Source: Nibricoccus sp. (GTDB lineage: Bacteria; Verrucomicrobiota; Verrucomicrobiia; Opitutales; Opitutaceae). From it: a stretch of 64,000 nucleotides of DNA. Of this stretch, positions 47,440-62,920 are shown piece by piece; within the stretch, counting starts at the first letter, position 1, and each line of letters opens with the position of its first letter. Below the pieces are notes generated by a model. It did no database searches. It was not told the origin of the DNA and saw only the letters and a list, made by a program, of their open reading frames with translations. The DNA lies in contig JASGHG010000001.1 of the NCBI GenBank assembly GCA_047602425.1, positions 2,208,001-2,272,000 on the forward strand. The letters are read 5' to 3'. The position numbers and the translations under genes are program-made.

Positions 47440-47745
47440 GTTCTGGGTATTGAAGACCTTCGATTTGTGCACGGCGGGGCTGGGGGTCAATGGCATCGAT
47501 CTGGAGTACGCCGATGCCCGAGCAATTGGGAAGAGGTTGCGCTTCGATTCCTAAAAACCATCACGTAATAAAACGCGTTCTCCGTTGAAGCCTTCGTCTG
47601 CTCCTCCGTGGTGTCTTCCACAGGCACCTAAAAGGCAACATGGTAGTTGCATGAGCGGGAGGAGGAGTTCGCTTGTAACATTTGTGAAACGGTGGGGTAA
47701 AATCGCTCGGCATTTGTGACTTGTGGGTTCAGCTTGTCTCACGTT

Positions 47746-48462
47746 ATGGATGCAAAGCCTAAAAAGATTTTGATCGTCGACGACGAAGCGGATGTCACCG
47801 ATTTGGTGGCTTATCATTTGCGTGCCAAAGGCTTCCACGTGGAAACCTTGAACGACCCCAACGGCAGCATTGGAATTGCTCGTACGTTTGTCCCCGATTT
47901 GGTGGTGCTCGATGTGATGATGCCTGACCTCAACGGCATCCAAATCTGTCGGATGCTGCGGGCCGATCCTAAGCTGCAAAAAGTCCCGGTGATTTTTCTT
48001 ACCGCGAAAGCCGAGGAGTCTGATCGCATCCAAGGACTGGAGACGGGGGCGGATGACTATATCTGCAAGCCATTTAGCACAAAGGAATTAGTTCTTCGGA
48101 TCCAAACTATTTTGCGTCGCGTGACCGAGGGCGCGCCGGCTGAACCAAAGCATTTGCAGATCGGTCAGATCGCAATCGATGTTGATCGGCATATTGCCAC
48201 GGTGGCCGGTCTTCCAGTGGAGCTGACGGCGACGGAATTTAAATTGCTACGATTGCTGATGGAGCGTCGCGGTCGAGTGCAGACGCGTGAGCATCTTTTG
48301 ATCAACGTCTGGAATTACGAAACGGAAATCGAGACACGCACGGTCGACACGCATGTACGGCGTCTGCGCGAAAAGCTGGGTGCGGAGGCTGCTTGGATTG
48401 AAACCATACGCGGGGTAGGGTATCGCATGGCGGATCGAAAATCCGACGCATGTGTATCCTGA
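47746..48462 (+). CDS. OmpR/PhoB-family response regulator (PhoB-like)
   Basis: ILIVDDE, LDVMMP, GADDYICKPF, LTATEFKLL, TRTVDTHVRRLREKL. Confidence 0.92.
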   Translation: MDAKPKKILIVDDEADVTDLVAYHLRAKGFHVETLNDPNGSIGIARTFVPDLVVLDVMMPDLNGIQICRMLRADPKLQKVPVIFLTAKAEESDRIQGLETGADDYICKPFSTKELVLRIQTILRRVTEGAPAEPKHLQIGQIAIDVDRHIATVAGLPVELTATEFKLLRLLMERRGRVQTREHLLINVWNYETEIETRTVDTHVRRLREKLGAEAAWIETIRGVGYRMADRKSDACVS

Positions 48463-49718
48463 TTTCAATTACGCTCGGCCTCGCCTTGGTGGCAGCCCTT
48501 GTGGCTTTGTGGCGGCAGCACCGGTTGATGCGCCAACTGCACACCGCGCTGCTCAACCGCCAGCCGATCCTGAGCGAGTCCCTCCGGACCGGCGGCGATC
48601 ATGATTGGAATCACGTTTCGCAGGCCGCAAATGACTTGATTGCGGAATTCGGTCGGTTGCAGCAAATCCGTTCCGGGCAATTAACGCAGTTGGAGGCGAC
48701 GCTCGGAAGTTTGCAGGAGGCGGTCTTGATCGTCGATTCGGGCAACCGAATTATTCTGGCGAACAATGCGATGCAGGAAATTTTTCCGCGCGCGGCGAAT
48801 ATTCTTGGCCAACGCCTGGAGCAGGTCCTGCAAAGTGCGGCGTTTCTTCAATACGTGGACGATGTACGCAAAGGCGAAGCCCAGCCGCAGTATGAAATCG
48901 AGTTTGCCGAAGGGAATCGCGCGATTTGGGTCGAAGCCACCGGCACGAAAATTCCTTCTCTGGGCGCCGATAAAAATCCGTGGGCGCTCTTTGTATTGCA
49001 CGATATCACCAAGCAGAAAAAACTTGAGGCGGTGCGAAAGGATTTCGTTGCGAACGTCTCGCACGAACTGCGCACGCCGCTCAGTGTGATCAAAGGTTAC
49101 GTCGAGACTTTGGTCGATGACCACCAGACGATCCCCATCGAAGACCGCGAACGTTTCCTCCGCACGATCCAGCGGCATACGGAACGCTTGAACTCTTTGC
49201 TGGACGATTTGCTGGTTTTGTCGCGCTTGGAATCGATCAACCCGGGCCTGCGCCGCGAGTCGACCAACTTGGCTGATATTTTGCGCACCGTTATCGAGGA
49301 CTTCCGCGCGCGTCCGTCGGCGGCTGAGCACAAGATTGCCGCGACCTTCGCACCGATGATCGGGCCGCTGCTCATCGATCCATTGAAAATCACGCAGGTC
49401 TTGGAAAACCTAATCGACAACGCGCTCAAGTACACGCCCAAAGGTTCGCAGATCGACGTTTCAGCCAGTGTGCGCGAAGGAATGATCGAGATGAGCGTGC
49501 GCGATAACGGCCCGGGGATTCCCGCAGCGGACCTGCCGCATATTTTCGAGCGTTTTTATCGGGTGGACAAAGGTCGCTCGCGGGAAAAAGGCGGCACGGG
49601 TCTTGGTTTGAGCATTGTCAAACATATCGTGCAGCTTCACGGCGGCCAGGTGCGCGTCGAAAGCACACTGGGGCAGGGGACGACCTTCTGCTTTTCTTTG
49701 CAGCAACGAAGTGGTTAG
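48450..49718 (+). CDS. PhoR-like PAS sensor histidine kinase
   Basis: RKDFVANVSHELRTPL, NLIDNALKY, IFERFYRVDKGRSREKGGTGLGLSIVKH. Confidence 0.92.
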   Translation: MCILISITLGLALVAALVALWRQHRLMRQLHTALLNRQPILSESLRTGGDHDWNHVSQAANDLIAEFGRLQQIRSGQLTQLEATLGSLQEAVLIVDSGNRIILANNAMQEIFPRAANILGQRLEQVLQSAAFLQYVDDVRKGEAQPQYEIEFAEGNRAIWVEATGTKIPSLGADKNPWALFVLHDITKQKKLEAVRKDFVANVSHELRTPLSVIKGYVETLVDDHQTIPIEDRERFLRTIQRHTERLNSLLDDLLVLSRLESINPGLRRESTNLADILRTVIEDFRARPSAAEHKIAATFAPMIGPLLIDPLKITQVLENLIDNALKYTPKGSQIDVSASVREGMIEMSVRDNGPGIPAADLPHIFERFYRVDKGRSREKGGTGLGLSIVKHIVQLHGGQVRVESTLGQGTTFCFSLQQRSG

Positions 49719-52700
49719 ATTTTTACGCGGGCTGGCTTGGGAAGCGAACGCTCGCGCAACCAGGCGAAGATCACCGGCGTGACAATCAGAATGTGCACGA
49801 GGCTGGAGAGCATGCCTCCGACGACGGGAGCGGCGAGCGGCTGCATGATTTCCGCGCCGGTGCGACTGCTCCAGAAAATCGGCAGCAACGACGCGACAGT
49901 GGTGGCGACGGTCATGACCTTGGGGCGCAACCGCAGTCGCGCGCCGGCTTTGATCGCGCCGAGCAATTCATCGTGGTTCAGTTCGCGGCCGACTTCGGCG
50001 CGCTTTTTGGCAATGGCTTCTTCCAGGTACACGACCATGACGACGCCGGTCTGGATCGCCGTGCCGAACAATGCGATATAACCAACCCAGACGGCCACGC
50101 TGAAATTGAAACCCATGAAGTGTTGCAGAAGCACCCCGCCGGTGAGCGCGAACGGCACGGCGAGAATTACATGGGCCGCCTCGGAGATCGAATGGAACGT
50201 CATCACCAGCAGGCCAAAGATGATGAGCAACACGATGGGGAAAACGATTTTCAACGTTTCACGGGCACGGATCTGATTTTCGTACTGGCCGCTATATTCG
50301 ATGGTCATGCCGGGATCGAGCTTTAGCTCCTTGCCGACGCGCTCCTTGATTTCATCGACAAAGCCGCCGAGGTCACGCTCGTTCACGTTGGCCTGAACGT
50401 AGACGCGCAGGCGGCCGTTTTCGCTGGCGATTTCGTTTGGACCAATGACGCGTTTGACGGTGGCGACCTGTTTCAAAGGCACATAAGCGCCGGACGGCGT
50501 CGGAATCACCAAGTCGCCAATTTTTTCGATGTCATCGCGGTCGGCGCGATCGAGCCGAACCTGAATGGGCCAGCGTTCACGACCTTTGATTGTGGTGGCC
50601 ACGGTGGTTCCCCCGAGGCCGGTTTCGACGTAGCGGAAGAGGTCGGCCATTTTCAGACCATAGCGGCCCATCTCGGCGCGATTGGCTTCGATTTCGAGAT
50701 AGGGTTTGCCCTGCACGCGCGAAGGGGCGACGCCGGTGGCGCCAGAAATGGCGGTAATAATGCGTTCCAGTTCGAAGGCCTTTTGTTGAAGAGCGTCGAG
50801 ATTGTCGCCGAAAATTTTCACGCCGACCTGTGCGCGTATGCCAGTACTCGTCATCAAAATTCGATTTTCGATCGGTTGCAAAAATCCCGGGACGTAGCCC
50901 GGCACGGCGGTGAGTCGCTCGATGAGTTCACCGATGATCTGCTGCTTCGTCACGCCGGGCCGCCAGTCTTTCTGCGGCTTCAGCATGATGGTGGTTTCGA
51001 TCATTTCGATAGGCGCGGGATCGGTCGCGGTTTCGGAGCGTCCAAGTTTACCGGCTACGGAGACGACTTCCGGGTGCTGGCTGATGACTTTGTCCTGCCA
51101 GGCCATGATGCGTTTCACCTCGGTGAGCGAGGTGGCTGGAAGCAGCACGGGCATGAAAAGCAGGCTGCCTTCCTCAAGTGTCGGCATGAACTCGCTGCCG
51201 AAACCTTCCGTGTGCTTGGCGACGGACGGTGCGGCTTTGTGCAACCACGAATTCATCGCGCGAGGCAAACCGAAGGCTATCACCAAACAGGTTACCAGCA
51301 GCGTGAAGGCGAGACTGAGCACGGTTTTACGGTGGGTGAGTGCCCAGTCGAGCGTGGGGTTATAAGCCTTCAGCAGGAATTTCATCAGCCAATTTTCGTG
51401 CTCCGGCTTGAAGGGCCCGCGGACGAGCAACGTACAGAAAACCGGGACGGCAGTGATGGCGAGAAGGGTGGCGCCAAGCAGGGCAAACGATTTTGTGTAG
51501 GCGAGGGGATGGAAGAGTTTTCCCTCTTGGCCGCTGAGCAGAAACACCGGCACGAAGGCGAGGATGATAATCGCCATTGAAAAAAACATCGGACGGCCGA
51601 CCTGTGTGGCGGCTTCGAGCGTTTCCTTGAACGTTTCGGCGGCGGTGAGGCGGCGTTTCAAGTGCTCCTCCGCAATCTCGCAGTGCCGGATCACGTTTTC
51701 GGTCATCACGATGCCGGCATCGACCAGCACGCCGATGGAGATCGCGATGCCCGTCAGCGACATGATGTGCGACGGAATGCCGAACTCTTTCATAAGGATA
51801 AAAGAGATCAGGATCGACGCAGGCAGCGGCAGCGTGACGATCAGGATGCTGCGGAAGTGGAACAGAAAGAGGATGTGCGCGAGCGTCACGAGGATAACTT
51901 CCTCGGTCAGCGCGTGCTTGAGCGTGTCGATGGCACGCTCGATCAAATCGCTTCGGTCATAGAACGATTCTACGGTCACACCTTTCGGCAGGCCGGGCGC
52001 TATGGCGGCGAGCTTGGCCTTTACGTCGTTGATGACCTTGTAGGCATTTTCTCCATAGCGCATAACGACGATGCCGCCGACGACTTCGCGGCCATTCACG
52101 TCGAGCGTGCCGCGGCGGAAATCGCCCCCAATCTCCACGCGGGCAACGTCGCGCAAATAGAGCGGCGTGCCATTGCGCGGCATGAGCGGGATGGATTCGA
52201 GATCGGAGATTTTGCCGACGAGACCGACGCCGCGCACGATGTATTCGGCGCCATTTTCCTCGATGGTTTTGCCGCCGACGTTGAGATTGCTGGCGCCGAG
52301 AGCATCCATCACCTCGCCGAGCGGTACGCCAAATTGTTTCAATTTGAGCGAGGAGACCTCGACCTGGTACTGTCGCACGAAACCACCAAGGCTGCCGATT
52401 TCAGCAACGCCGGGAACCGCCGCGAGTTGATAACGAATGAAAGTATCCTGAAGCGTGCGCAGGGAACCGAGATCCTGCTGACCGGACTGATCCTTCAAAT
52501 AATATTGGTACACCCAGCCCAACCCCGTTGCATCCGGACCGAGGCGGGCGGCGATTCCCTCTGGCAAAAGGTTCCCCAGTGAATTGAGACGTTCGAGCAC
52601 GCGGGTGCGGGCAAAGTAATTTTCAATCTTATCGTCGAAGATGACGGTGAGGAACGAAAAGCCGAACATCGAAGTGGCGCGCACGGTTTTCACGCCGGCC

Positions 52701-52927
52701 AGACCCTGAAGCGAAACGGATAGAGGGTAGGTGATCTGGTCTTCCACTTCCTGCGGCGAGCGCCCCGGCCAGTCGGCGTAGACGATCACCTGGTTTTCCG
52801 ACAAATCGGGAATGGCGTCGATCGGGATGGTGCGCAGCGCGAAGAATCCCCACGCACAAAGGCCTAGAAAGGCGCTTAGGACGAGAAAGCGGTTGTGGAG
52901 CGACCAAGTGATGATGCGATTGATCAT
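49715..52927 (-). CDS. cusA: CusA-type Cu(I)/Ag(I) RND efflux permease
   Basis: DAIPDLSENQV, LGPDATGLGWVYQY; Met-triad contexts LLFMP, APIEMIET, RILMTSTG. Confidence 0.9.
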   Translation of the reverse strand: MINRIITWSLHNRFLVLSAFLGLCAWGFFALRTIPIDAIPDLSENQVIVYADWPGRSPQEVEDQITYPLSVSLQGLAGVKTVRATSMFGFSFLTVIFDDKIENYFARTRVLERLNSLGNLLPEGIAARLGPDATGLGWVYQYYLKDQSGQQDLGSLRTLQDTFIRYQLAAVPGVAEIGSLGGFVRQYQVEVSSLKLKQFGVPLGEVMDALGASNLNVGGKTIEENGAEYIVRGVGLVGKISDLESIPLMPRNGTPLYLRDVARVEIGGDFRRGTLDVNGREVVGGIVVMRYGENAYKVINDVKAKLAAIAPGLPKGVTVESFYDRSDLIERAIDTLKHALTEEVILVTLAHILFLFHFRSILIVTLPLPASILISFILMKEFGIPSHIMSLTGIAISIGVLVDAGIVMTENVIRHCEIAEEHLKRRLTAAETFKETLEAATQVGRPMFFSMAIIILAFVPVFLLSGQEGKLFHPLAYTKSFALLGATLLAITAVPVFCTLLVRGPFKPEHENWLMKFLLKAYNPTLDWALTHRKTVLSLAFTLLVTCLVIAFGLPRAMNSWLHKAAPSVAKHTEGFGSEFMPTLEEGSLLFMPVLLPATSLTEVKRIMAWQDKVISQHPEVVSVAGKLGRSETATDPAPIEMIETTIMLKPQKDWRPGVTKQQIIGELIERLTAVPGYVPGFLQPIENRILMTSTGIRAQVGVKIFGDNLDALQQKAFELERIITAISGATGVAPSRVQGKPYLEIEANRAEMGRYGLKMADLFRYVETGLGGTTVATTIKGRERWPIQVRLDRADRDDIEKIGDLVIPTPSGAYVPLKQVATVKRVIGPNEIASENGRLRVYVQANVNERDLGGFVDEIKERVGKELKLDPGMTIEYSGQYENQIRARETLKIVFPIVLLIIFGLLVMTFHSISEAAHVILAVPFALTGGVLLQHFMGFNFSVAVWVGYIALFGTAIQTGVVMVVYLEEAIAKKRAEVGRELNHDELLGAIKAGARLRLRPKVMTVATTVASLLPIFWSSRTGAEIMQPLAAPVVGGMLSSLVHILIVTPVIFAWLRERSLPKPARVKI

Positions 52928-52956
52928 TTAGAAAATGGAGGTCAAACCTCGAAAGG

Positions 52957-53064
52957 GCCACAGGAGAGCGCAGAGCTCGGACACAGAGGGCACTGAGAAT
53001 CGCGGGTAGGCCGGGTTTGTCAGACTCTGTGAACTCTGTGTCATCGCTCTGTGTTCTCCGTGGC
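52957..53064. repeat. Imperfect inverted-repeat element (CACAGAG / CTCTGTG units) between cusB-like gene and cusA
   Basis: GCCACAGGAGAGCGCAGAG..GACACAGAGGGCACTGAG ... CTCTGTGAACTCTGTGTC..CTCTGTGTTCTCCGTGGC. Confidence 0.75.
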
Positions 53065-53080
53065 GAAATTTGTCTTTAGG

Positions 53081-54730
53081 TTATTTTATTTCTTCACCGC
53101 AGTCGGACATGGCGGAGCCGAAGAAGGGATTGCGCATCGGTTCGCCGCGCTGGAGCCAGCGGCCGGTGCCGAGGACGGGAGACATCGGACATTGATAAAT
53201 TTTCACCGCACCGGAGTGGTGCAGATGAGCGGTTTTCGCGAGGTCGGCCACTGCGGTGCTGAAAACTTCGAATGAGCGTCGAGCCGCTTTGATGTCAGGA
53301 GAGGCTTTCAGTCCCTCGGTGAATTGTGCGAGCGGGCCTTTGGCAGCGTCGGGCGACGACTTCACATAGGCCGCGAAATTTGTCTGAAGGCTGGGAATGA
53401 GCTTTTGATATTTCTCCAAATCATCGCTCGCAAGTGCGTCGGCCGCATCGGCCGCGGCGAGGACGAGCGGTTTTAGCGTCTCGATGTCGGCAGCGTGTTC
53501 TTCGGCCATGGGTTTTTCCGACGCCGATTCTCCGCTCGCGCTGTGCGCGAGTTGCGCCTGACCGTCGAGAAGCAGAGCGCCCTGGGTGACGACACGTTCA
53601 TTTGCATGCAGTCCGCCGCGGACCGAATAGTATTCGTCGCCTGCCGCGGCGATTTCGATGGTGCGCGGTTCGTACACACCGCCGCCTTTGTCAACGTAGA
53701 CGAGCGGCTTCGCTTGTGTATGCAAAACGGCACTACGCGGGACGAGTGTGGAATCAGGAACTTCGACCCGTACGTGGCCGGTGGCCGTGACACGGTGGAG
53801 CAGTTTCCGCTCGGCATTGTCGATGACCACGCGAACACGCGCGGTGCGAGTCATGGGATCGAGGTTCGGGTTGATGAAGGTGATTTGTGCGCCAAAGACT
53901 TCGCCGGGGCGCGAAGGCGTTGCCACCTCGACGTGCTGCCCCACGCGCAGCCAGGCAAGGTCGGACTCATAGGCGTCGAACAAAAACCACATCTTGGAAA
54001 AATCCGCGATCGTGAGAATGGGCGCGCCGGTCATGACATAGCTGCCTTCGTAGGCATTGCGCTCCAAAACCGAACCACCGACAGGCGCCAGAATTTCAGT
54101 CTCGCGGCTCACCGTTTCGGCTTTGGCGAGCGCGTCGATCTGCTCGGAGAGAAGGCCGAGACGAAGGAGCTTTTCGCGGGCGGCCGCGGCGAGGGGCGAA
54201 TCGCTGCCACCTTGCGCGAGCGCGTGGAACTCCTGTCGCACCTGCAATAATTCAGGCGAATAAACGAGCGCGAGTGGCTGGCCGGCGGCGAATTCCTGTC
54301 CGACTTGGTTCACAAAAAGCTTTTCAAGCCGAACCTCGGTATAGGCGGAAACGATGCGGTGGCGCGTATCGTCGTCCTCGATCGTGCCGGTGACACGAAG
54401 CGTGCGGGTGAGCGGGCCGGTTTTGACTTCGCTGGTCTGGACTCCGATCACGGAGGCGGTCGCGGGCGTGAGAGTGACGAGCCCGTTTTTTGTCTCGAAG
54501 CCGGCGTCACCCTCGTAGACCGGCACCAGGTCCATGCCGCAGATCGTGCATTTGCCGGGTTTGTCGGACTTGATCCACGGATGCATCGGACTTTGGTAGA
54601 ACTTGATCGTACGTCCGCCGGCCGTTGCCGAACCAGTCGCAGAGGCATGATCGCGTTTTGCGATAAAGAATCCGGCGCCGCCGGCGACGGCGGCCGTGAG
54701 AAGGACGATTAGAAAAGTTTTGGCGTTCAT
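53081..54730 (-). CDS. CusB-type periplasmic adaptor with heavy-metal-binding N-domain and C-terminal extra domain
   Basis: YQSPMHP..KPGKCTICGMDL; C-terminal YQCPM...NPFFGSAMSDCG (DUF3347-like). Confidence 0.88.
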   Translation of the reverse strand: MNAKTFLIVLLTAAVAGGAGFFIAKRDHASATGSATAGGRTIKFYQSPMHPWIKSDKPGKCTICGMDLVPVYEGDAGFETKNGLVTLTPATASVIGVQTSEVKTGPLTRTLRVTGTIEDDDTRHRIVSAYTEVRLEKLFVNQVGQEFAAGQPLALVYSPELLQVRQEFHALAQGGSDSPLAAAAREKLLRLGLLSEQIDALAKAETVSRETEILAPVGGSVLERNAYEGSYVMTGAPILTIADFSKMWFLFDAYESDLAWLRVGQHVEVATPSRPGEVFGAQITFINPNLDPMTRTARVRVVIDNAERKLLHRVTATGHVRVEVPDSTLVPRSAVLHTQAKPLVYVDKGGGVYEPRTIEIAAAGDEYYSVRGGLHANERVVTQGALLLDGQAQLAHSASGESASEKPMAEEHAADIETLKPLVLAAADAADALASDDLEKYQKLIPSLQTNFAAYVKSSPDAAKGPLAQFTEGLKASPDIKAARRSFEVFSTAVADLAKTAHLHHSGAVKIYQCPMSPVLGTGRWLQRGEPMRNPFFGSAMSDCGEEIK

Positions 54731-55977
54731 TGGGTGACGTCTTGTGCGGTCAGAAAATCGTAGGAGGCGGTGGCTTGGGCGTGTTCGCTGCGAACCTCGA
54801 CCAGCTTCATTTCGGTTTCGAGCAGGGCGCGCTGGGCCATGACGACCTCCAGCAATGGCGCCTGACCGCTCTCATAGGCACGGTGCTGAGTGGCGGCTTG
54901 CTGCTGTGCGAGGGGAAGAAGTTCGTTGCGGTAGCGGGCGATCTGCGTGGCGGTGATATTGATGCGTTGGATCACGCCTGCGACCATGCCAGCGAGTTCG
55001 CTTTCGGTCATTTGCACCTCGGCGCGCGCGGCGGTGATCATGCTGCGCGCTTCGGCGCGCTGGGCTTTGTTGCGCTTGTCGTTAAACCAAGGCACGCTGA
55101 ACGCCACGCCGGTGTCGTAACTGGAAATCACGTCGCCACTGCGATTCATCTGGCGGCCACGCACCATGATTTCAGGATCGATCGCACGATTTTTTTCCGC
55201 GATGGCGAGCTGGGCCTCGGCCGCTTTCACGCGGCGCGCGGCGCGAGCGAGCTCCGGATTGTGAAGGCGGGCGTGGGCCAGCGCTTCGGCGGGCGTGATC
55301 GAAATCGGACGAGCCTCAGGCAGGTTGAGAGGCGCGATCGCGGTCGCGGGCTCTCGCAACATCAAGGCGTTGAGTTTGCTGACGTCTTCTACGCGCATCG
55401 CGGCGAGATCGGCCTGTTCGGCATCGAGTCGCGCGAGTTCGGCCTGCGTGGTGATCAGATCCGCCTGCATGCGTTGACCGCGCTCATAAGCCTGGCGGGT
55501 CAACGTCACGGTTTGACGAAGGAGCGCGCGGAGACGTTCGTTAACGGCGGCTTTTGTATCGACAGCGGCAATACGCAGGTAGGCGGTGCGTGCCTGGTTG
55601 AACAAGTCGCGTTCGCGAACGGCGATGGCGGCATCGGCGACTCCGGCTTCCGCTGCGGCGGCTTCGGAGCGGAGTTTGTTGCGACGGCTCAGCGGAAGCT
55701 CTTGCGAGGCGGTCACCTCGATTTCCGAGTAAGTCGCGAAGCGTAACGTATCCTCGCGACGCCACTCGACTCCAACCTTCGGATCCATCCAAGCTTTTTC
55801 CTGCGCCACGCGCGCCCTCATGGCTTCGGCTTCGGCGCGCGAAGCGGCGAGCGCTGGATGATGTGTGCGAATGGCGGAAAAAACATCGCCGAGCGTCAGC
55901 GGCGGCGGCGGTTCTTCAGCGGCCATGGTGCTGGCGAACAGCACCGTGGCGAGAAAGCTTAAGGCTGGGCGTCGCAT
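54727..55977 (-). CDS. TolC-family outer membrane factor
   Basis: Signal peptide, helical OEP repeats, AYESGQ motif; first large gene of the efflux operon. Confidence 0.88.
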   Translation of the reverse strand: MRRPALSFLATVLFASTMAAEEPPPPLTLGDVFSAIRTHHPALAASRAEAEAMRARVAQEKAWMDPKVGVEWRREDTLRFATYSEIEVTASQELPLSRRNKLRSEAAAAEAGVADAAIAVRERDLFNQARTAYLRIAAVDTKAAVNERLRALLRQTVTLTRQAYERGQRMQADLITTQAELARLDAEQADLAAMRVEDVSKLNALMLREPATAIAPLNLPEARPISITPAEALAHARLHNPELARAARRVKAAEAQLAIAEKNRAIDPEIMVRGRQMNRSGDVISSYDTGVAFSVPWFNDKRNKAQRAEARSMITAARAEVQMTESELAGMVAGVIQRINITATQIARYRNELLPLAQQQAATQHRAYESGQAPLLEVVMAQRALLETEMKLVEVRSEHAQATASYDFLTAQDVTQ

Positions 55978-55983
55978 GGAAGA

Positions 55984-56322
55984 TCAGGCCTTTTTCTTTT
56001 GAGCGGCTGCCTCGTCGATCAGCTTCAGATACTTGGCGGGATCTTTTTTGAATTTGCCAATGCACATCTTGCAGCAGAAGCGCACGAGGCGGTCGGGTTT
56101 GCCTTCTTCTTTATGGATATAGTCGATGGGTGTCCCCATCTCGCCGAGCTTTTCGCCCGAAACGACGCACGTATCAAGCGGGTAGGCCGCGGTGTCGGCA
56201 GCTGCGATCAATTGCACCGATGTCGGTTTGGCGGCACAGCAACCGCCGCAGGAGGAATCGCCGGCGGCGAACGCCAGGGAGGCGAGGGAGACAAAAGGGA
56301 GGAGGAGGAGTGATTTTTTCAT
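55984..56322 (-). CDS. Small secreted Cys-rich metal-binding protein (YHS/TRASH-like)
   Basis: Signal peptide; SCGGCC, CVVSGEKL, RFCCKMC..FKKDPAKYL. Confidence 0.75.
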   Translation of the reverse strand: MKKSLLLLPFVSLASLAFAAGDSSCGGCCAAKPTSVQLIAAADTAAYPLDTCVVSGEKLGEMGTPIDYIHKEEGKPDRLVRFCCKMCIGKFKKDPAKYLKLIDEAAAQKKKA

Positions 56323-56348
56323 ATGGGAATAAATGCGGAACAGCCTCC

Positions 56349-56376
56349 TTACGCCCGACAACTGGCGAAACCCTCA
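56349..56376 (-). promoter_or_regulatory. ECF promoter copy 1 (efflux operon)
   Basis: Minus strand TGAGGG-N16-GCGTAA. Confidence 0.75.
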
Positions 56377-56393
56377 AATATTTTGAATAAATC

Positions 56394-56421
56394 TGAGGGG
56401 TGCGCTTATCCTCAGGTGTAC
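56394..56421 (+). promoter_or_regulatory. ECF promoter copy 2 (autoregulatory)
   Basis: TGAGGG-N16-GTGTAC. Confidence 0.7.
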
Positions 56422-56440
56422 GGTGAGCAAAGAAATCATC

Positions 56441-56746
56441 ATGAATCCAAATCCGAACGACGCAGAACTGGGGCCGCTGCTCCGGGAAAATTTTCAGGTT
56501 GGGCCCGCAAAAACCCCCGCGTTTCGTGCTGAGGTGTGGGCTCGCATTGAGGCCAGGCGCCGGGCTCCCGTGACTTGGAGCGCATGGCTGCGACTGAATG
56601 CGATGCGTTTTGCCCTGCTCACGATCGCTACGATAACAATTGGCAGTGTCGGTGGCGGCTGGATCGCCAAAGCCCAGACCGACCAAAACCGCGAGCAGCT
56701 GGTGCGGCAGTACCTCGCGAGCATCGATCCGCACCAGAAAATCTAA
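56441..56746 (+). CDS. Putative single-TM anti-sigma factor
   Basis: Short cytoplasmic N-terminus (FRAEVWARI), one TM, short tail YLASIDP; precedes sensor and ECF genes. Confidence 0.65.
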   Translation: MNPNPNDAELGPLLRENFQVGPAKTPAFRAEVWARIEARRRAPVTWSAWLRLNAMRFALLTIATITIGSVGGGWIAKAQTDQNREQLVRQYLASIDPHQKI

Positions 56747-56757
56747 GCCGCACACCG

Positions 56758-57261
56758 ATGAAATTCCGCTGGATCGCCGCCTTTTTGATTTTCGCCCTTG
56801 GGTTGGTAGCGGGTGGTTCGACCTATCTTTGCTTCCGCAAGCCGCTGCCGGTGGCATCCGCGGGAGAGGATGCGTCGCTTCTTTGGCTGCGCTCGGACTT
56901 TAATTTACCTGCGGACAAGATGGCGCGCATCGCTCAACTGCACGAAGCCTATCGGGGAATCTGCGACGAGCATTGCCGCCAGATTCGCGAAGCACGCGTC
57001 ACTGTGAAAAAAATGCGCGCCGCCTCGGCCGAGCATTGCGACATCGTCGCCGCCGAAGCAAAAGTGGCCGATCTGGACCGCGTGTGTGTTACGAGCCTGG
57101 AGGCCCACCTGCGGGAAATTGCCGGCGTGATTGGCGGTAATGAAGGAGAGCGTTATCTTGCCGTCGTGTTGCCACGCATCGCGCATTTTGATCATTCCGG
57201 AGCGCCGAACCTTAATCTAGACACCACGGACAAGACGCATGACCACCACGCCCATCACTGA
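56758..57261 (+). CDS. Periplasmic heavy-metal sensor (CnrX/Spy-like helical protein)
   Basis: N-terminal TM, WLRSDFNL, LHEAYRGICDEHC, further Cys/His, His-rich tail THDHHAHH. Confidence 0.7.
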   Translation: MKFRWIAAFLIFALGLVAGGSTYLCFRKPLPVASAGEDASLLWLRSDFNLPADKMARIAQLHEAYRGICDEHCRQIREARVTVKKMRAASAEHCDIVAAEAKVADLDRVCVTSLEAHLREIAGVIGGNEGERYLAVVLPRIAHFDHSGAPNLNLDTTDKTHDHHAHH

Positions 57262-57841
57262 GACGGGCACGCCGACGGATGAGGACCTGATGGTGGCGCT
57301 GCAAGGAGGCCAGGATGCAGCGCTTGCTTCGCTCATGGAGCGCTGGGAACTTCCGGTGAAAGCATTTCTCCAGCGCCTCGGTGTTCCCGCGGCCGACGTG
57401 GAGGACGTGGCACAGGAAGCATTCGTGAAACTTTACGAAACACGGGCGCGGTTTCACGCCGGCTCGGCTTTCAAACCATGGTTACTCACGCTCGCAGGCA
57501 ATCTCGGGCGTAATCGGTTGCGGTGGAGATTCCGGCGGCGCGAAGACAGCATCGAGGCTATCGACGCGGCTCAAGCTGGCGGTTTTCAACCGGCTGATCC
57601 CACGGCGATGACAGGCGCGGTAGTCGCGGAAAAAAACGCGCTCCGGCAGACGGTGCGCGCAGCGGTGGAAGCGTTGCCGAACAATTTGCGAGAGGCAGTC
57701 GTGTGCGTGGAACTGGAAGAAATGAGTTACAACGACGCTGCACAGGTCATGAAATGCTCAACCAAGGCCGTGGAAACCCGGCTGTACCGTGCGCGGCAAT
57801 TGTTGCGCACGACGCTGCAGAGCTGGCTGACGAAAGAGTGA
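57239..57841 (+). CDS. ECF sigma-70 factor
   Basis: TDEDLM, VEDVAQEAF, FKPWL, sigma4 MSYNDAAQVMKCSTKAVETRLYRAR. Confidence 0.93.
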   Translation: MTTTPITETGTPTDEDLMVALQGGQDAALASLMERWELPVKAFLQRLGVPAADVEDVAQEAFVKLYETRARFHAGSAFKPWLLTLAGNLGRNRLRWRFRRREDSIEAIDAAQAGGFQPADPTAMTGAVVAEKNALRQTVRAAVEALPNNLREAVVCVELEEMSYNDAAQVMKCSTKAVETRLYRARQLLRTTLQSWLTKE

Positions 57842-57875
57842 GCGATGACGGATGCGACTTGGGGGAGGCCGACAT

Positions 57876-57905
57876 AAAAATAAGGGCGCCGGATGTTGGC
57901 GCCCT
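57876..57905 (-). terminator. Intrinsic terminator for the minus-strand small gene
   Basis: AAAAATA-AGGGCGCC-ggatgtt-GGCGCCCT. Confidence 0.6.
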
Positions 57906-57924
57906 GGTTTGAGAATTTCGCGAA

Positions 57925-58224
57925 TTAGGATTTCGCCTTGGTCGCGCAGCAGCTCATCGAGCTGTCATTGCAGTCGGAACAATCCATGTTCGTGCTGACG
58001 ACCTTGCGGATCGGAAGGCCGCGCGGGCCGGTGGTGACCTGAACCACCTCGGTGACTTTGCACTTCGAAGTGGGGGTCTGGGCAGCGGCATCGCGCGCGG
58101 CTTTGGCAGATCGGGCGACGGCGCCCACGCGGGTGAAATAGTCGGCGCCGGGACCGGCGCTAAGCGAGGAGGAACCTAGAGCGACCAGTGCGACGAGGGG
58201 CAGAAGAATGCGGAAGGATTTCAT
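57925..58224 (-). CDS. Small secreted Cys-rich hypothetical protein
   Basis: Signal peptide; C-terminal MDCSDCNDSSMSCC; own ECF-type promoter and terminator. Confidence 0.75.
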   Translation of the reverse strand: MKSFRILLPLVALVALGSSSLSAGPGADYFTRVGAVARSAKAARDAAAQTPTSKCKVTEVVQVTTGPRGLPIRKVVSTNMDCSDCNDSSMSCCATKAKS

Positions 58225-58268
58225 GAGAGGGTGTTTTGATTGTTTTGGTGAATTAACTTCGAGTCACC

Positions 58269-58296
58269 TTACACTCGGTTATTGGCGAAACCCTCA
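58269..58296 (-). promoter_or_regulatory. ECF promoter copy 3
   Basis: Minus strand TGAGGG-N16-GTGTAA; shares TGAGGGTTTCGCCA with copy 1. Confidence 0.75.
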
Positions 58297-58401
58297 GGAA
58301 TTCCTCAGAAAACCTGCGACAAGAAATGAGAGGCGCCATGTAGCTTTGCCTCGTTTCGAAACGGCGCCGGCGGCGCGCCACAATCGAGCCCGACTAACAG
58401 C

Positions 58402-61341
58402 CTAACGCTTCAGCAGGAGCAACCAGGCGCCCGAGGAGGGTTTCGCAAAACGGTTGTCGCGGTCGAATTTCGCAGACTGAACGGCGCCGGTTTTCGCGTC
58501 GCACCAGAGGGCGGTGCGATGGGTGCCGGCGTTCTTCAATTCGACGAAGGCGGATTCGCCTTCGGGGAGGAAATAAAGCGAGATGCTGCGGTTTTCATTG
58601 GCGAGGAGCCAGGTGCTATTACCGGTATCGACCGGTTTTAGTTCGGCGAGACAGTCTCCGAGATGCTCGCGCACGAAAGCGATGAAGGCGCGGTCATCGC
58701 GATCGTTTTTCAGCGGCTGGGCGGCGGCGTAATCGGCCAGCAGCGGCATCGCGCCGCCCGCCATTAAGATCGGAACCGGACCCTGACCCGCGTGGGGAGC
58801 GATGATGGCTTTGTCGGGGAAGCGGTCGCGATATTCGCGGACTTGTTTGTACACGAGTGCGGCCGTGCCCTGTGGAATGAGATCCTTGCCGAAGGCGGCG
58901 GTGCGGTCCTCGCGGAAAGCAGTTTTGCCATCGCTGTGCGGGGCAAAGAGGGAACCATCAGCCAGATACTGCCAGTAGCGCTGGTCGACGGCGGCGACGA
59001 GCGAGGCGCGTTTGGGGTCGGCGAGAATGGCATCGGTGATGGCTTTGCTGGTATTGAGAACGATGAATACGCGTTTGCCGCGGGCGGCCTGCCATTCGGC
59101 GACGGTATCGAGGAAGAATTGTTGGAACGAGAGCGGGCCGGCGAATTGGAAGGCGAGGGTGTGGATGACGTTGGGTTGCCCGTCGAAGGCGTCGAGGCCG
59201 TGCCAAATGAAAAGCCGGTGCAACTCGCGGCGCACGGGATGGCTGATATCGTAGAAGTCGGCGACGATGCCGATTCGCGAACCGTTATTGGTGAAAGGTG
59301 GCGGTTCGGTGAAGCCGGTTTCCTGAATGCAGTTGGCGGAGCGCCAGGGAAATTCGGCCCAGTGTGCAGCGGCTTCGACAAAGTTATGATGATTGTAGAA
59401 ATGATGGTAGAGAATCATGTCGCGGTGGGCGCACTCGGTCGCGAATTCACGGAGACGATTCCAATACCAAGGGTTGAACTTCGTGAGATCGTATTTGCTC
59501 AGTCCATCGGCGGCGGTGCCTTGGCCGCTGCGAGCCCACGGCGTTTCATAAAAAGGGGCACAGACATCGGCGTCGGGCTGGCTGATGGTGAGATGAGAAT
59601 CGCGGCGGCGGTCGTACCAAAGGCCGGGCCAGACGTGGACAAGGGTATTGCCGTTTGCGGCGAGGCGGGTTGCGAGCTCGGACAGATCTTCAGTCAGGCC
59701 GGGTCCGGTTTTACCTGGAACCCAGCGCGTGGCGCTCCAGCCAAGTTCGGCGGCGCGGGCTGGGATCGCCTGGCCTTTCCACCAAGCGTTGCTGGTGGCT
59801 GTGCCGAAAAGAACTTTGTTGCGAATAGTGAAGCGGCCATTGGTGATGCCGAAGGGTGCGGAAAGTGAGACCGGCGGCGAAAAAACGGACGGCGGAGCGG
59901 ATTGGCCGGAGGCCGTAGATTGGAGATCGGAGGTCGGGGGTCGGGAATCGGCGCGGTTTGACGCGGGTTCGGATTTGACGGATTGCCGGGCGGCGAGCTG
60001 AGTGCGGTAGAGGGAAAGTTTAGTGGAGTCGGAAAGGTTTTGGTTACTGGCACCAGGCGGGTTTTCGGCGAGGATTTTTTTGGCCGTGCAGTTCCACGCC
60101 ATGGAATTGGCGGCATTCCAGCCGGCGCCCTGAAAACGTTCGCCGAGGGTGCCGAGGACGAGGGAGCCACCGTCGATTTTCACGTTGTCAAAGAGTGTGC
60201 CGGAAGCCCAGCTCTCGATGGATCCGCTGTCTCCCGTCGCATGGGTAGCCACGCATTCGAAGAACACATTCGGCCCGGCCGCGCAGTGTCCCACGAGAAA
60301 AGGATGACGTGCGCCGTCGGCGGTGCAGCGTTGCACGAGGATTTGTTGTCCACCCACGTAGAAACCGAAGCGCCGCCAGCCAGCGTCGGCACCGACCGGC
60401 GCCTCACTCCGGCAGTCCTGCACGGTGATCGCGCGAGTGCCGGTGCCGAGCCAAACGGCGGCGCTGACAAAGTGGCGGGCGGTCACATCGCGTACCCAGG
60501 CGTTTTCTGTATTTTCAATCTGAATACCGATCCAAGCGTGTTCTTCGTCAGTGGCAGAATTGGAATCGAACTCACTCTGCAAAGTAAGATTTTCTACGCC
60601 GACGTTTTGCAGGCGGCTCGGCCAGTTGAGCGTTTGTGCGGTGGCGTTGCCATATTTGGCCTCAAGGGCGGTGGTGATGGGCGCATCGAACGTAACAGCC
60701 TGCGCGGCGGCGTCGATGGCGATAATGGTTCGGTCCCACTCGATCTCGCGGGAACCGGGCACCCAATTGAGACGGATGTCGGGAAAATTTCCGGGAAATT
60801 TGTCCATGCCGAGGTCTTGGGCCCACTCCTTCGTGCTCGGACGGCGGATGAGCACGCGTTGCCCGATCGACAGTCCATCAACCTTTGCAAGTTTGAGAGT
60901 CCGGCCTCCAACCGGGGCATCGGCGCCGATCGCGAGAGGAATGCCCAGCTTGCGATCCAAGGCGCTGCCAGAAATGAGAATGAGCGCCCGTCGCGATTGG
61001 CCGGTCGCCACCAACGTCGCGTTTTCGCCACGGAGTACGACACCGGAAGCGCGGATTTGCAGCTGGCCACTGACGGGATAAACGCCGGCTTTGAGGAGGA
61101 TGGCCCCTCGCAGGCCGGAGGGTGTGACGGCGAGCGAAGAAACTTTGTCGATAGCGGATTGGATGGCCGCGGTTGCATCGCCCTTTGACGGTTCGATGAT
61201 CATCGCATGGGCGACTTCCGGCAGGGGCAACTCTCCGCCGCTGAATCCCGCTTGGGAATAGTCCAGCGAAGCAGGCTCGGCAAAAAGAGCAACCGAACTA
61301 ACAAAAAGGAATAGTCCAAAAAAAAGGCGGGGACGGAGCAT
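58402..61341 (-). CDS. Secreted pectate-lyase-like beta-helix protein fused to a DUF6298-like domain
   Basis: DYSQAGF, GDATAAIQSAID, GVVLRG, WVRDVT; second domain with WARSGQG...KYDLTKFNPWYW. Confidence 0.7.
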   Translation of the reverse strand: MLRPRLFFGLFLFVSSVALFAEPASLDYSQAGFSGGELPLPEVAHAMIIEPSKGDATAAIQSAIDKVSSLAVTPSGLRGAILLKAGVYPVSGQLQIRASGVVLRGENATLVATGQSRRALILISGSALDRKLGIPLAIGADAPVGGRTLKLAKVDGLSIGQRVLIRRPSTKEWAQDLGMDKFPGNFPDIRLNWVPGSREIEWDRTIIAIDAAAQAVTFDAPITTALEAKYGNATAQTLNWPSRLQNVGVENLTLQSEFDSNSATDEEHAWIGIQIENTENAWVRDVTARHFVSAAVWLGTGTRAITVQDCRSEAPVGADAGWRRFGFYVGGQQILVQRCTADGARHPFLVGHCAAGPNVFFECVATHATGDSGSIESWASGTLFDNVKIDGGSLVLGTLGERFQGAGWNAANSMAWNCTAKKILAENPPGASNQNLSDSTKLSLYRTQLAARQSVKSEPASNRADSRPPTSDLQSTASGQSAPPSVFSPPVSLSAPFGITNGRFTIRNKVLFGTATSNAWWKGQAIPARAAELGWSATRWVPGKTGPGLTEDLSELATRLAANGNTLVHVWPGLWYDRRRDSHLTISQPDADVCAPFYETPWARSGQGTAADGLSKYDLTKFNPWYWNRLREFATECAHRDMILYHHFYNHHNFVEAAAHWAEFPWRSANCIQETGFTEPPPFTNNGSRIGIVADFYDISHPVRRELHRLFIWHGLDAFDGQPNVIHTLAFQFAGPLSFQQFFLDTVAEWQAARGKRVFIVLNTSKAITDAILADPKRASLVAAVDQRYWQYLADGSLFAPHSDGKTAFREDRTAAFGKDLIPQGTAALVYKQVREYRDRFPDKAIIAPHAGQGPVPILMAGGAMPLLADYAAAQPLKNDRDDRAFIAFVREHLGDCLAELKPVDTGNSTWLLANENRSISLYFLPEGESAFVELKNAGTHRTALWCDAKTGAVQSAKFDRDNRFAKPSSGAWLLLLKR
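59908..59949. repeat. Six tandem degenerate heptamers in the interdomain linker
   Basis: GGAGGCC GTAGATT GGAGATC GGAGGTC GGGGGTC GGGAATC. Confidence 0.65.
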
Positions 61342-61486: not shown

Positions 61487-61840
61487 GTGAACAACGACGT
61501 TTTACCGAAGTGCCTCGCTTGCGGCGTATGCTGTTTCTCGCGGCTGGAGACTTATGTGCGCGTAAGCGGCGCCGACTGGACCAGACTGGGCGACGATGCC
61601 GGCCGCTACGCGTACTTCATAGGGCATCGCGCATACATGAATATGGAGGAAGGCCATTGCGCGGCGTTAGAGATACAAATAGGTTCGGAAGGTACACGTG
61701 AATATATTTGCAGAGTCTATGATCGACGGCCCCAAATCTGTCGCGATTTGGAGCGAGGTTCCCCTCAATGCGCCGGCGAGCGTTTGCTCAAAAGCGACCG
61801 GCCGTCGGAGAGTCCGAGCCCAATGGAGGTAGCAACTTAG
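61487..61840 (+). CDS. YkgJ-family cysteine cluster protein
   Basis: CLACGVCC, CAAL, CRVYDRRPQICR. Confidence 0.85.
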   Translation: MNNDVLPKCLACGVCCFSRLETYVRVSGADWTRLGDDAGRYAYFIGHRAYMNMEEGHCAALEIQIGSEGTREYICRVYDRRPQICRDLERGSPQCAGERLLKSDRPSESPSPMEVAT

Positions 61841-62760
61841 CGCGGCGGACGAGACTGGCTGCCCCGGTCGAGCTTCTGATCGTCATAGGAGAGAGGATCC
61901 TCGATGGGTTCCAGGTGGGTGAAAACGGAAGAGTCCTTCACTGCGGTCCGGATCTCCGCTTCAATTTTTTCCAGCAAGTCATGGCCCTGTTGCACGGACC
62001 AGGCGCCAGGGACAAGCACGTCGACGGCAATGAATTTCCGCGCGCCCGCCTGGCGCGTGCGCAGTGCGTGAAACTGGATGCCGTCATTTTCATGCCGGGC
62101 AAAAATCGCCTTAACCGCCGTGATATTCTCGAAAGGCAGGGCAGCGTCCATAAGACCCGCGATGGAGCGGCGCACGATTTTAACACCGGTCCAGACAATG
62201 TTGGCGGCGACGAGAATGGCCACGATTGGATCAAGGCGTGTCCAGCCCGTGACCGCCACTGCGCCAATCGCGGCCACGACGCCCACCGAAGTCCAGACAT
62301 CGGTCATCAAGTGATGGCCGTTCGCTTCGAGCGTGATTGAATTTCGTTTGCGACCGACGCGGATCATCAACAGTGCCGTCGCGAGATTGATGACCGAGGC
62401 CGCGAGCGAAACCACTAAACCGACTCCAATTTGTTCCAACGGTTTCGGGTTCAGCAGGCGTCCGTAGGCGGCCCAGGCGATGCTGCCAGCTGCGATCAGG
62501 ATCAATGTACCTTCAACGCCGCTCGAAAAATATTCCGCCTTGTTGTGCCCGTAAGCATGTTCGTCATCCGCCGGGCGCGCGGCAATTTTCAACATCGTCA
62601 AGGCCATGACGCCACCGGCAAGATTCACGAGGGATTCCACGGCATCGGAAAACAATCCCACCGAACCTGTCAGCAGATACGCCGTGGATTTCAGCACGAT
62701 CGTTGCGATCGAGGCCGCGATCGAAATCCAGGCAAAGCGGGTGAGGGAGACTTTTTCCAT
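61837..62760 (-). CDS. Cation diffusion facilitator transporter (FieF-like)
   Basis: GSVGLFSDAVES, HAYGHNKAEY, HLMTDVWTS, THLEP. Confidence 0.93.
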   Translation of the reverse strand: MEKVSLTRFAWISIAASIATIVLKSTAYLLTGSVGLFSDAVESLVNLAGGVMALTMLKIAARPADDEHAYGHNKAEYFSSGVEGTLILIAAGSIAWAAYGRLLNPKPLEQIGVGLVVSLAASVINLATALLMIRVGRKRNSITLEANGHHLMTDVWTSVGVVAAIGAVAVTGWTRLDPIVAILVAANIVWTGVKIVRRSIAGLMDAALPFENITAVKAIFARHENDGIQFHALRTRQAGARKFIAVDVLVPGAWSVQQGHDLLEKIEAEIRTAVKDSSVFTHLEPIEDPLSYDDQKLDRGSQSRPPR

Positions 62761-62920
62761 GAGGGATTTTGCCGATTTGTGAGCGACAAAAAAACACTGC
62801 GAGCATTCTCGGGGTTCGGGCAAATGTTTTCGCCAAAAGGCTTCGGATGGTTCTGTCTGGCATTCCCCTTCTGCAAGTCCGCAAGAACGGCAAAGCAAAA
62901 CACCCAGCGACTAGGGCAAA

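Follow-up and report, generated by a model that had tools for sequence, protein, structure and literature searches.

What controls a Cus-type efflux pump in whose cluster neither CusF nor CusRS was found (the genome has two CusF domains, both outside the cluster)? The question is raised by a stretch of 64,000 nucleotides from the verrucomicrobial bacterium Nibricoccus sp. (contig JASGHG010000001.1, positions 2,208,001 to 2,272,000; hereafter, the window), which belongs to a closed genome of 5,158,924 bases (~5.16 Mb). A pump operon that begins with a gene for a small Cys protein and continues with TolC-, CusB- and CusA-type genes is divergent from genes for an anti-sigma candidate, a sensor and an extracytoplasmic function (ECF) sigma factor, a layout that a first-pass annotation of this DNA had described and that we confirm. 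We consider it likely, with a probability of about 0.65, that the latter genes form a CnrYXH-type trans-envelope switch (hereafter, a Y-X-H module) that senses copper and drives three promoters. The genes of the switch and of the pump, which includes a permease of the resistance-nodulation-division (RND) type, are as follows:

56441..56746, plus strand: CnrY-like single-pass anti-sigma candidate, 101 amino acids, hydrophobic stretch from residue 57, conserved family
56758..57261, plus strand: CnrX-fold membrane-anchored periplasmic sensor, 167 amino acids, carrying Cys69/Cys73/Cys110 and lacking the CnrX nickel site
57239..57841, plus strand: ECF sigma factor, 200 amino acids, with a CnrH-group-like region 4 recognition helix
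55984..56322, minus strand: small YHS/TRASH-like Cys protein, probably exported, 112 amino acids (weak YHS match, E 5e-4)
54727..55977, minus strand: TolC/CusC-type outer membrane factor, 416 amino acids (PF02321)
53081..54730, minus strand: CusB-type membrane fusion protein, 549 amino acids, with an N-terminal heavy-metal-binding domain (PF16576, PF19335)
49715..52927, minus strand: CusA-type heavy-metal RND permease, 1070 amino acids, with Met592/Met642/Met692 (TIGR00914, 1076 bits)

The likeness of the plus-strand genes to CnrYXH, already proposed in that annotation, withstands closer analysis: the Y-X-H order is present, the sensor is, judging from profile comparisons, a CnrX homologue, and the 101-amino-acid protein models onto the ECF. 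When a profile of 149 sequences of the sensor family was compared with the PDB, CnrX was retrieved first (E 3.5e-7), followed by NccX (E 9.6e-7), and hhalign gave a probability of 96.6 for the sensor-CnrX pair; PDB searches with the single sensor sequence or with a close alignment missed CnrX, which was reached only by the 149-sequence profile. The sensor model (predicted local distance difference test, pLDDT, 89.7) comprises an N-terminal membrane helix and four further helices, and its top structural match is CnrX (Z 9.2, root-mean-square deviation 3.2, 104 aligned residues), with weak matches to CsoR/RcnR at Z 7.5-8.2. A Foldseek search with this model returned no match at E ≤ 0.001, CnrX chains occupying ranks 2-7, and the match of the sensor to PF13801 is weak (E 0.006, under the cut-off). 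At 50% identity and E up to 1e-10, the family comprises at least 340 clusters; it was found in 38 of the 401 genomes of a phylum sample, among them 28 of the 34 genomes of the window's family.

In CnrX, nickel and cobalt are bound by His42, His46, Glu63, His119 and Met123 (PMC6851896). The window protein carries Leu41, Arg45, His62, His117 and Ile121 in these columns, and among the 149 homologues neither the His42/His46 pair nor Met123 occurs even once; a Met one turn after the Met123 column is common (118/149), the window protein having Ile there. What distinguishes the family is a triad of cysteines, as Cys69, Cys73 and Cys110 are found together in 144 of the 149 homologues, and Cys110 in 148. 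The idea of a cysteine-bearing sensor is borne out by this triad, and the sensor has also lost the nickel site. The first-pass annotation had further pointed to the motif CDEHC (residues 69-73), to extra cysteines and to a His tail. CDEHC and, from the extra cysteines, Cys110 stand; Cys25 and Cys94 are not conserved, and the columns of the His tail are mostly gaps in the 149-sequence alignment, where the tail is limited to close relatives, so that these three were rejected as family features. Aligned on the CnrX hairpin, Cys69 would face Cys110, with Cys73 one turn off, a register that would suit either a site at which three thiolates bind Cu(I)/Ag(I) in trigonal geometry or a disulfide with one thiol left free.

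The region 4 helix of the sigma factor, KAVETR, matches that of the CnrH group and not that of RpoE-like proteins. The window sigma shares only 27% identity with CnrH and falls in a separate clade: two trees placed the verrucomicrobial sigmas in one clade (support 93/97 and 96/96) and the CnrH group in a second. A union of the two, although present in only 32% of bootstrap trees, is not rejected by the approximately unbiased test (p-AU 0.477), so that membership of the window sigma in ECF291 is possible. The closest named relatives of this ECF belong to the Opitutaceae and other Verrucomicrobiota, and the published ECF291 group is given as 98% Proteobacteria in its description (PMC7826278). 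The window sigma has no Cys-rich C-terminal tail of the CorE type. As for the 101-amino-acid protein, it has no family match and none to CnrY, and its profile finds nothing in the PDB; the ECF291 description allows an anti-sigma factor without sequence homology to CnrY (PMC7826278). The candidate is conserved at position -2 from the sigma gene, with one hydrophobic stretch, and the CnrX-homologous membrane-anchored protein is at position -1. Its modelled complex with the ECF scored 0.81, compared with 0.00 for the best control, and in the benchmark 116 of 157 solved pairs attained this mark, as did 2 of 215 mismatched ones. Between runs, at least 96% of contacts are shared, the partner pLDDT is at least 74, and residues 6-39 of the candidate (within the first 50 modelled) contact sigma regions 2 and 4; in these models, the orphan protein likely acts as the ECF's anti-sigma. 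This genome has two further Y-X-H modules of the same clade on the minus strand (G000:C1:753504-755233 and G000:C1:2725334-2726662, G000 being the window's genome), one of them beginning with a gene for a small Cys-rich exported peptide and having a shortened Cys-bearing sensor, and the other with anti-sigma and sensor fused in one 233-amino-acid frame.

The promoters that the sigma factor would recognise share the motif TGAGGG-N16-GYGTA:

56350..56376, minus strand: predicted ECF promoter of the pump operon (strict pattern; matrix rank 2)
56394..56420, plus strand: predicted autoregulatory ECF promoter of Y-X-H (strict pattern; matrix rank 6; position kept in 24 of 41 related loci)
58270..58296, minus strand: predicted ECF promoter of a gene for a 99-amino-acid protein (strict pattern; matrix rank 3)

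The sites and their common geometry had been reported before, with coordinates that were one base too long at each downstream end; as also reported, each site lies directly upstream of a transcription unit, 20-45 nucleotides before the start codon (27, 20 and 45 nucleotides, in the order listed, from the end of the -10 element to the ATG). Within the window, the pattern has three matches, compared with 0.02 expected, and none of 100 shuffles reached three, a statistic subject to the caveat that the pattern was chosen post hoc. A genome scan, which the first-pass annotation had suggested, returned the strict pattern three times in 5,158,924 bases, every time at this cluster and within 2 kb of the window's ECF. 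As identical half-sites with other spacers (8-29) give 0-7 genome occurrences each, the number of strict matches is ordinary by itself, but their clustering and placement are not.

Conservation of the autoregulatory site was examined in 42 related loci, from which the window's own locus and the duplicate L082 (whose sensor is that of L001) had been removed; one of the 42 was too short for the target stretch, leaving 41. The degenerate form YRAGGG-N16/17-YGTA, which was defined after the related loci had been inspected, is present on the sense strand 270-420 nucleotides before the sensor in 24 of the 41; each of ten equally wide control windows contained it in 0 of 41-42 loci. A matrix built from the sites of these 24 relatives places the window sites at ranks 2, 3 and 6 genome-wide on both strands. 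The top match (G000 4858959) was rejected as a fourth regulon member, being antisense inside a coding frame. By eye, 11 of 15 loci without the strict autoregulatory site have a variant (GAGGG or GCGGG, then GGGTA, GGTTA or GTTTA), often as a back-to-back pair, and the four others, which belong to more distant families, show no clear motif. Additionally, positions 49000-59000 contain no sigma-70 promoter-like site, compared with 2.6 expected; no motif site precedes the genome's own CorE-like sigma gene, and none of the top-40 matrix matches lies at the CusF-domain genes.

The three-promoter regulon read by the ECF is thus supported, but its novelty had been overstated. On pMOL28, the cnrY promoter has the sequence CAAGGG-N16-CCGTA and the cnrC promoter CGAGGG-N16-CCGTA, and since both have the same geometry as the window sites, the motif is a CnrH-type promoter, not a new one. 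The verified -10 element of cnrYp is CCGTATA (PMC13492112). In Table 4 of the same source, the consensus listed for ECF291 is ATACGC and CCCTCA; these seem to be TGAGGG...GCGTAT in reverse complement, with the -35 and -10 elements swapped, because they fit the cnr promoters only once inverted. A second dialect, with GGTTA as the -10 element, was seen in L084, L085, L090, L091, L093, L094 and L097; the sigmas of L084, L093, L094 and L097 lie in one subclade of the tree.

The third predicted target and the element that follows it are these:

57925..58224, minus strand: small Cys-containing protein, probably exported, 99 amino acids, unnamed family, predicted third regulon member
57883..57905, minus strand: terminator-like hairpin and T run after the 99-amino-acid gene (consensus scan; 13 such sites, compared with 13.3 expected)

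The 99-amino-acid protein, to which no family is assigned in Atlas, represents a real small family: nine of its 15 genome matches are true homologues, the other six having been dropped as spurious frames. The strict motif is found 51-79 nucleotides upstream of the start in three of the nine, and a one-mismatch form in two more.

On the pump side, the proposal of a CusA-like Met triad proved correct, as Met592, Met642 and Met692 align with Met573, Met623 and Met672 of E. coli CusA, which makes the pump one of the Cu(I)/Ag(I) type; the permease scores 880 bits to E. coli CusA and 542 to ZneA. The best NCBIfam model for the fusion protein is CusB, under its cut-off. Longer homologues of the 112-amino-acid Cys protein carry YHS/TRASH families, and Cys52, Met62, Cys83, Cys84 and Cys87 are kept in 72-73 of its 73 short close homologues; possibly, this protein would serve as a metallochaperone in place of CusF. 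Among the genome's kinases, the best score to the CusS-family model is 208 bits, compared with a cut-off of 292.55.

Copper genes also accompany the module elsewhere. The neighbours were surveyed in 30 loci with long flanks (10 of 14 close loci, four with short flanks being dropped, plus 20 fetched regions), and 20 of these adjoin copper genes: 15 have a Met-triad RND by the module, and five have a multicopper oxidase and a P-type ATPase with CPC, YN and MxxSS, which we take to be the signature of the Cu(I)-type enzymes. The RNDs near modules are 38-95% identical to the window's pump, so that more than one pump lineage is involved, and every RND on the regulated side of a module has the Met triad. 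Two genomes in which the module stands alone have sites in trans: in G270, directly upstream of a gene for outer-membrane efflux and of one for a homologue of the 99-amino-acid protein, and in G282, before an operon for a CorE-like sigma and a P-type ATPase, which makes a two-tier sigma cascade possible there. In the window's own genome, a CorE-like ECF with a Cys-rich tail lies directly before a P-type ATPase (G000:C1:2742940-2745601), and in L004, L008, L010 and L011 a CorE-like sigma/ATPase pair adjoins the Y-X-H module.

In the mechanism that we propose, the single-pass anti-sigma would hold the ECF sigma at the membrane, and the CnrX-fold sensor would detect periplasmic copper, probably as Cu(I) and also Ag(I), likely through Cys69/Cys73/Cys110. 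The released sigma would then start transcription at the three TGAGGG-N16-GYGTA promoters, with the Cus-type efflux operon, the switch itself and the small exported Cys protein as predicted outputs. The wiring, that is, anti-sigma, sensor, sigma and three promoters, is very probable; how the sigma would be released is modelled on CnrYXH. Copper or silver is the probable signal, to judge from the neighbouring genes, and direct binding of the metal by the sensor's thiolates is a tentative proposal to which we give slightly less than even chances.

Several observations weigh against this explanation. A Z score of 9.2 is modest for a helical protein, and the good score of the complex model may echo the likeness of the pair to CnrY-CnrH, whose complex has been solved. 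It is unusual to find free thiols in the periplasm, the CnrX alignment puts Cys69 and Cys110 in register for a plain disulfide, and His72 is present in only 88 of the 149 homologues. Moreover, a copper pump, oxidase or ATPase is absent from the fetched flank of 10 of the 30 surveyed loci, several of which lie by ppk or aldehyde dehydrogenase genes, and sites in trans before metal-type genes were found in only two of five lone-module genomes scanned, where raw counts of control patterns are similar. Both paralogous modules have RAGGG-N16-KGTTA upstream, with nearly the same -35 element as the window sites. Finally, the related loci and genomes are kin, and their counts lack independence.

These points bear on four other explanations. 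In the first, which we judge rather unlikely, the switch and its copper output are the same but the cysteines are not ligands: Cys69 and Cys110 form a structural disulfide, or the thiols are oxidised or reshuffled under copper stress, and the metal is bound by His62 and His117 with His72 or His146. The hairpin register that pairs the two cysteines also holds His62 and His117, which are kept in 128 and 134 of the 149 homologues, respectively, and can be seen as a remnant of the CnrX site; additionally, the periplasm is oxidising, and Met is hence preferred there; the same review describes Met123 as conserved among CnrX homologues and as suited to periplasmic redox conditions (PMC7689651). However, three invariant cysteines are an odd number, so that one would be free or would link protomers, and CnrX, NccX and three alphaproteobacterial sensors fold without them.

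According to the second explanation, which we hold to be improbable, the signal is not Cu/Ag but another metal (Ni, Co, Zn or Hg) or general envelope thiol stress, with the Cus pump as only one of the sensor's outputs. The ten loci without nearby copper genes and the paralogous modules in the same genome, which have no adjoining pump, would fit such a signal, as would the fact that the sole studied relative senses Ni/Co (PMC6851896). Nevertheless, the Ni/Co ligands are lost, all RNDs next to the module on its regulated side have the Met triad, and copper oxidases and Cu(I)-type ATPases make up the remaining common neighbours.

Slightly less probable still is that the main or an additional reader of the three promoters is one of the two paralogous ECFs of the same clade encoded elsewhere in the genome. 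Both paralogues carry their RAGGG-N16-KGTTA elements before their own operons, and L093 combines both forms, GGTTA and GTGTA, in its two divergent promoters, so that one sigma may read both. Against this, one of the sites stands directly before the window's Y-X-H genes, all three are close to this ECF, and the paralogues' own -10 elements are unlike those of all three sites. That the sites resemble promoters by chance or serve an unrelated regulator as operators, for which the post hoc pattern and a count within the range of other spacers could speak, is largely refuted by the held-out matrix ranking, the positional conservation and a geometry identical to that of the cnr promoters.

The copper-sensing switch that we favour is a distant relative of CnrYXH from Cupriavidus metallidurans CH34 (pMOL28) and of NccYXH, which belong to ECF291 (formerly part of ECF20). 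With these it shares the Y-X-H order, a single-pass anti-sigma, a membrane-anchored four-helix CnrX-fold sensor, an RND pump as output, and autoregulatory and pump promoters with identical spacing, both of them computational predictions here. It differs from CnrYXH in its sensor, which has three invariant cysteines and lacks His42, His46 and Met123, in its anti-sigma, which has no detectable match to CnrY, and in its pump, which is of the Cu(I)/Ag(I) type and divergent, whereas CnrCBA lies downstream of CnrYXH. Copper neighbours of CnrYXH-like modules are already mentioned in the ECF291 description (PMC7826278). Alphaproteobacterial ECF291 modules by copA/copB/copC/copD or cus (Sphingomonas AAP5 p150, Novosphingobium pLA3 and Caulobacter henricii pCB4) share the Y-X-H order, the copper neighbours and the motif, which lies before several units, and in Caulobacter the module stands beside a Met-triad Cus pump, as in the window. 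Their sensors, however, keep the full His42/His46/Glu63/His119/Met123 site and lack the Cys triad. The architecture, the promoter and the copper neighbours of ECF291 are in print, and what is distinctive here is the swapped sensor chemistry.

Other copper systems share only parts of this arrangement. CusCFBA/SilCFBA, under CusRS/SilRS, have the Met-triad RND, the CusB-type adaptor and the outer membrane factor, but the window cluster has no two-component pair or CusF and begins instead with the YHS-like Cys protein. CorE/CorE2 of Myxococcus xanthus (ECF238) form a copper-responsive ECF type that uses cysteines, but CorE senses in the cytoplasm without an anti-sigma, while the window module has an anti-sigma candidate and no Cys-rich tail; CorE is the only copper-sensing ECF named in a published survey (PMC10141476). 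CsoR/RcnR are also helical bundles, and CsoR uses Cys/His for Cu(I), but sensing takes place in the cytoplasm. In the full-text literature, subscription papers being outside its scope, we found no description of a verrucomicrobial Y-X-H module or of a cysteine-type CnrX.

Within its group, only CnrYXH has been studied, and a family of this size in which the CnrX site is replaced by three cysteines offers a natural experiment in how one sensor fold can change its metal and yet signal. It would also explain the control of copper efflux in a phylum with little regulatory genetics. We tentatively suggest, as a scenario whose chances fall a little short of even, that Verrucomicrobiota rebuilt the CnrX scaffold as a periplasmic Cu(I)/Ag(I) sensor with a three-Cys thiolate site, which would replace CusRS family-wide and sometimes drive a CorE-like second tier. 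If the thiolate reading is true, this would be a new ligand chemistry in an oxidising compartment, and a copper-sensing trans-envelope ECF cascade. A possible use of the three promoters and the three-gene module is as an orthogonal copper/silver biosensor.

Some minor observations concern the surroundings of these elements. Lone modules in L111, L123, L124, L126, L127 and L128 adjoin ppk (polyphosphate kinase), in several cases downstream on the same strand and often with aldehyde dehydrogenase. Polyphosphate has been linked to copper handling. A tandem array at G000:C1:4855705-4863006 encodes a set of at least six exported paralogues in which the motif GNVGIGT recurs. In the window, a CxxCxxCC-family protein and a cation diffusion facilitator (CDF) transporter (61487-62898) are encoded 3 kb away from the cluster and lack the promoter motif, the best model for the transporter being MntE, under its cut-off. 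A PhoB/PhoR-like response regulator and kinase (47716-49718) converge on cusA with overlapping stop codons and look unrelated to the module. Lastly, the G+C content of the cluster is 0.593, that of the flanks is similar and that of the genome is 0.574, and this closeness gives no sign of a recent island.

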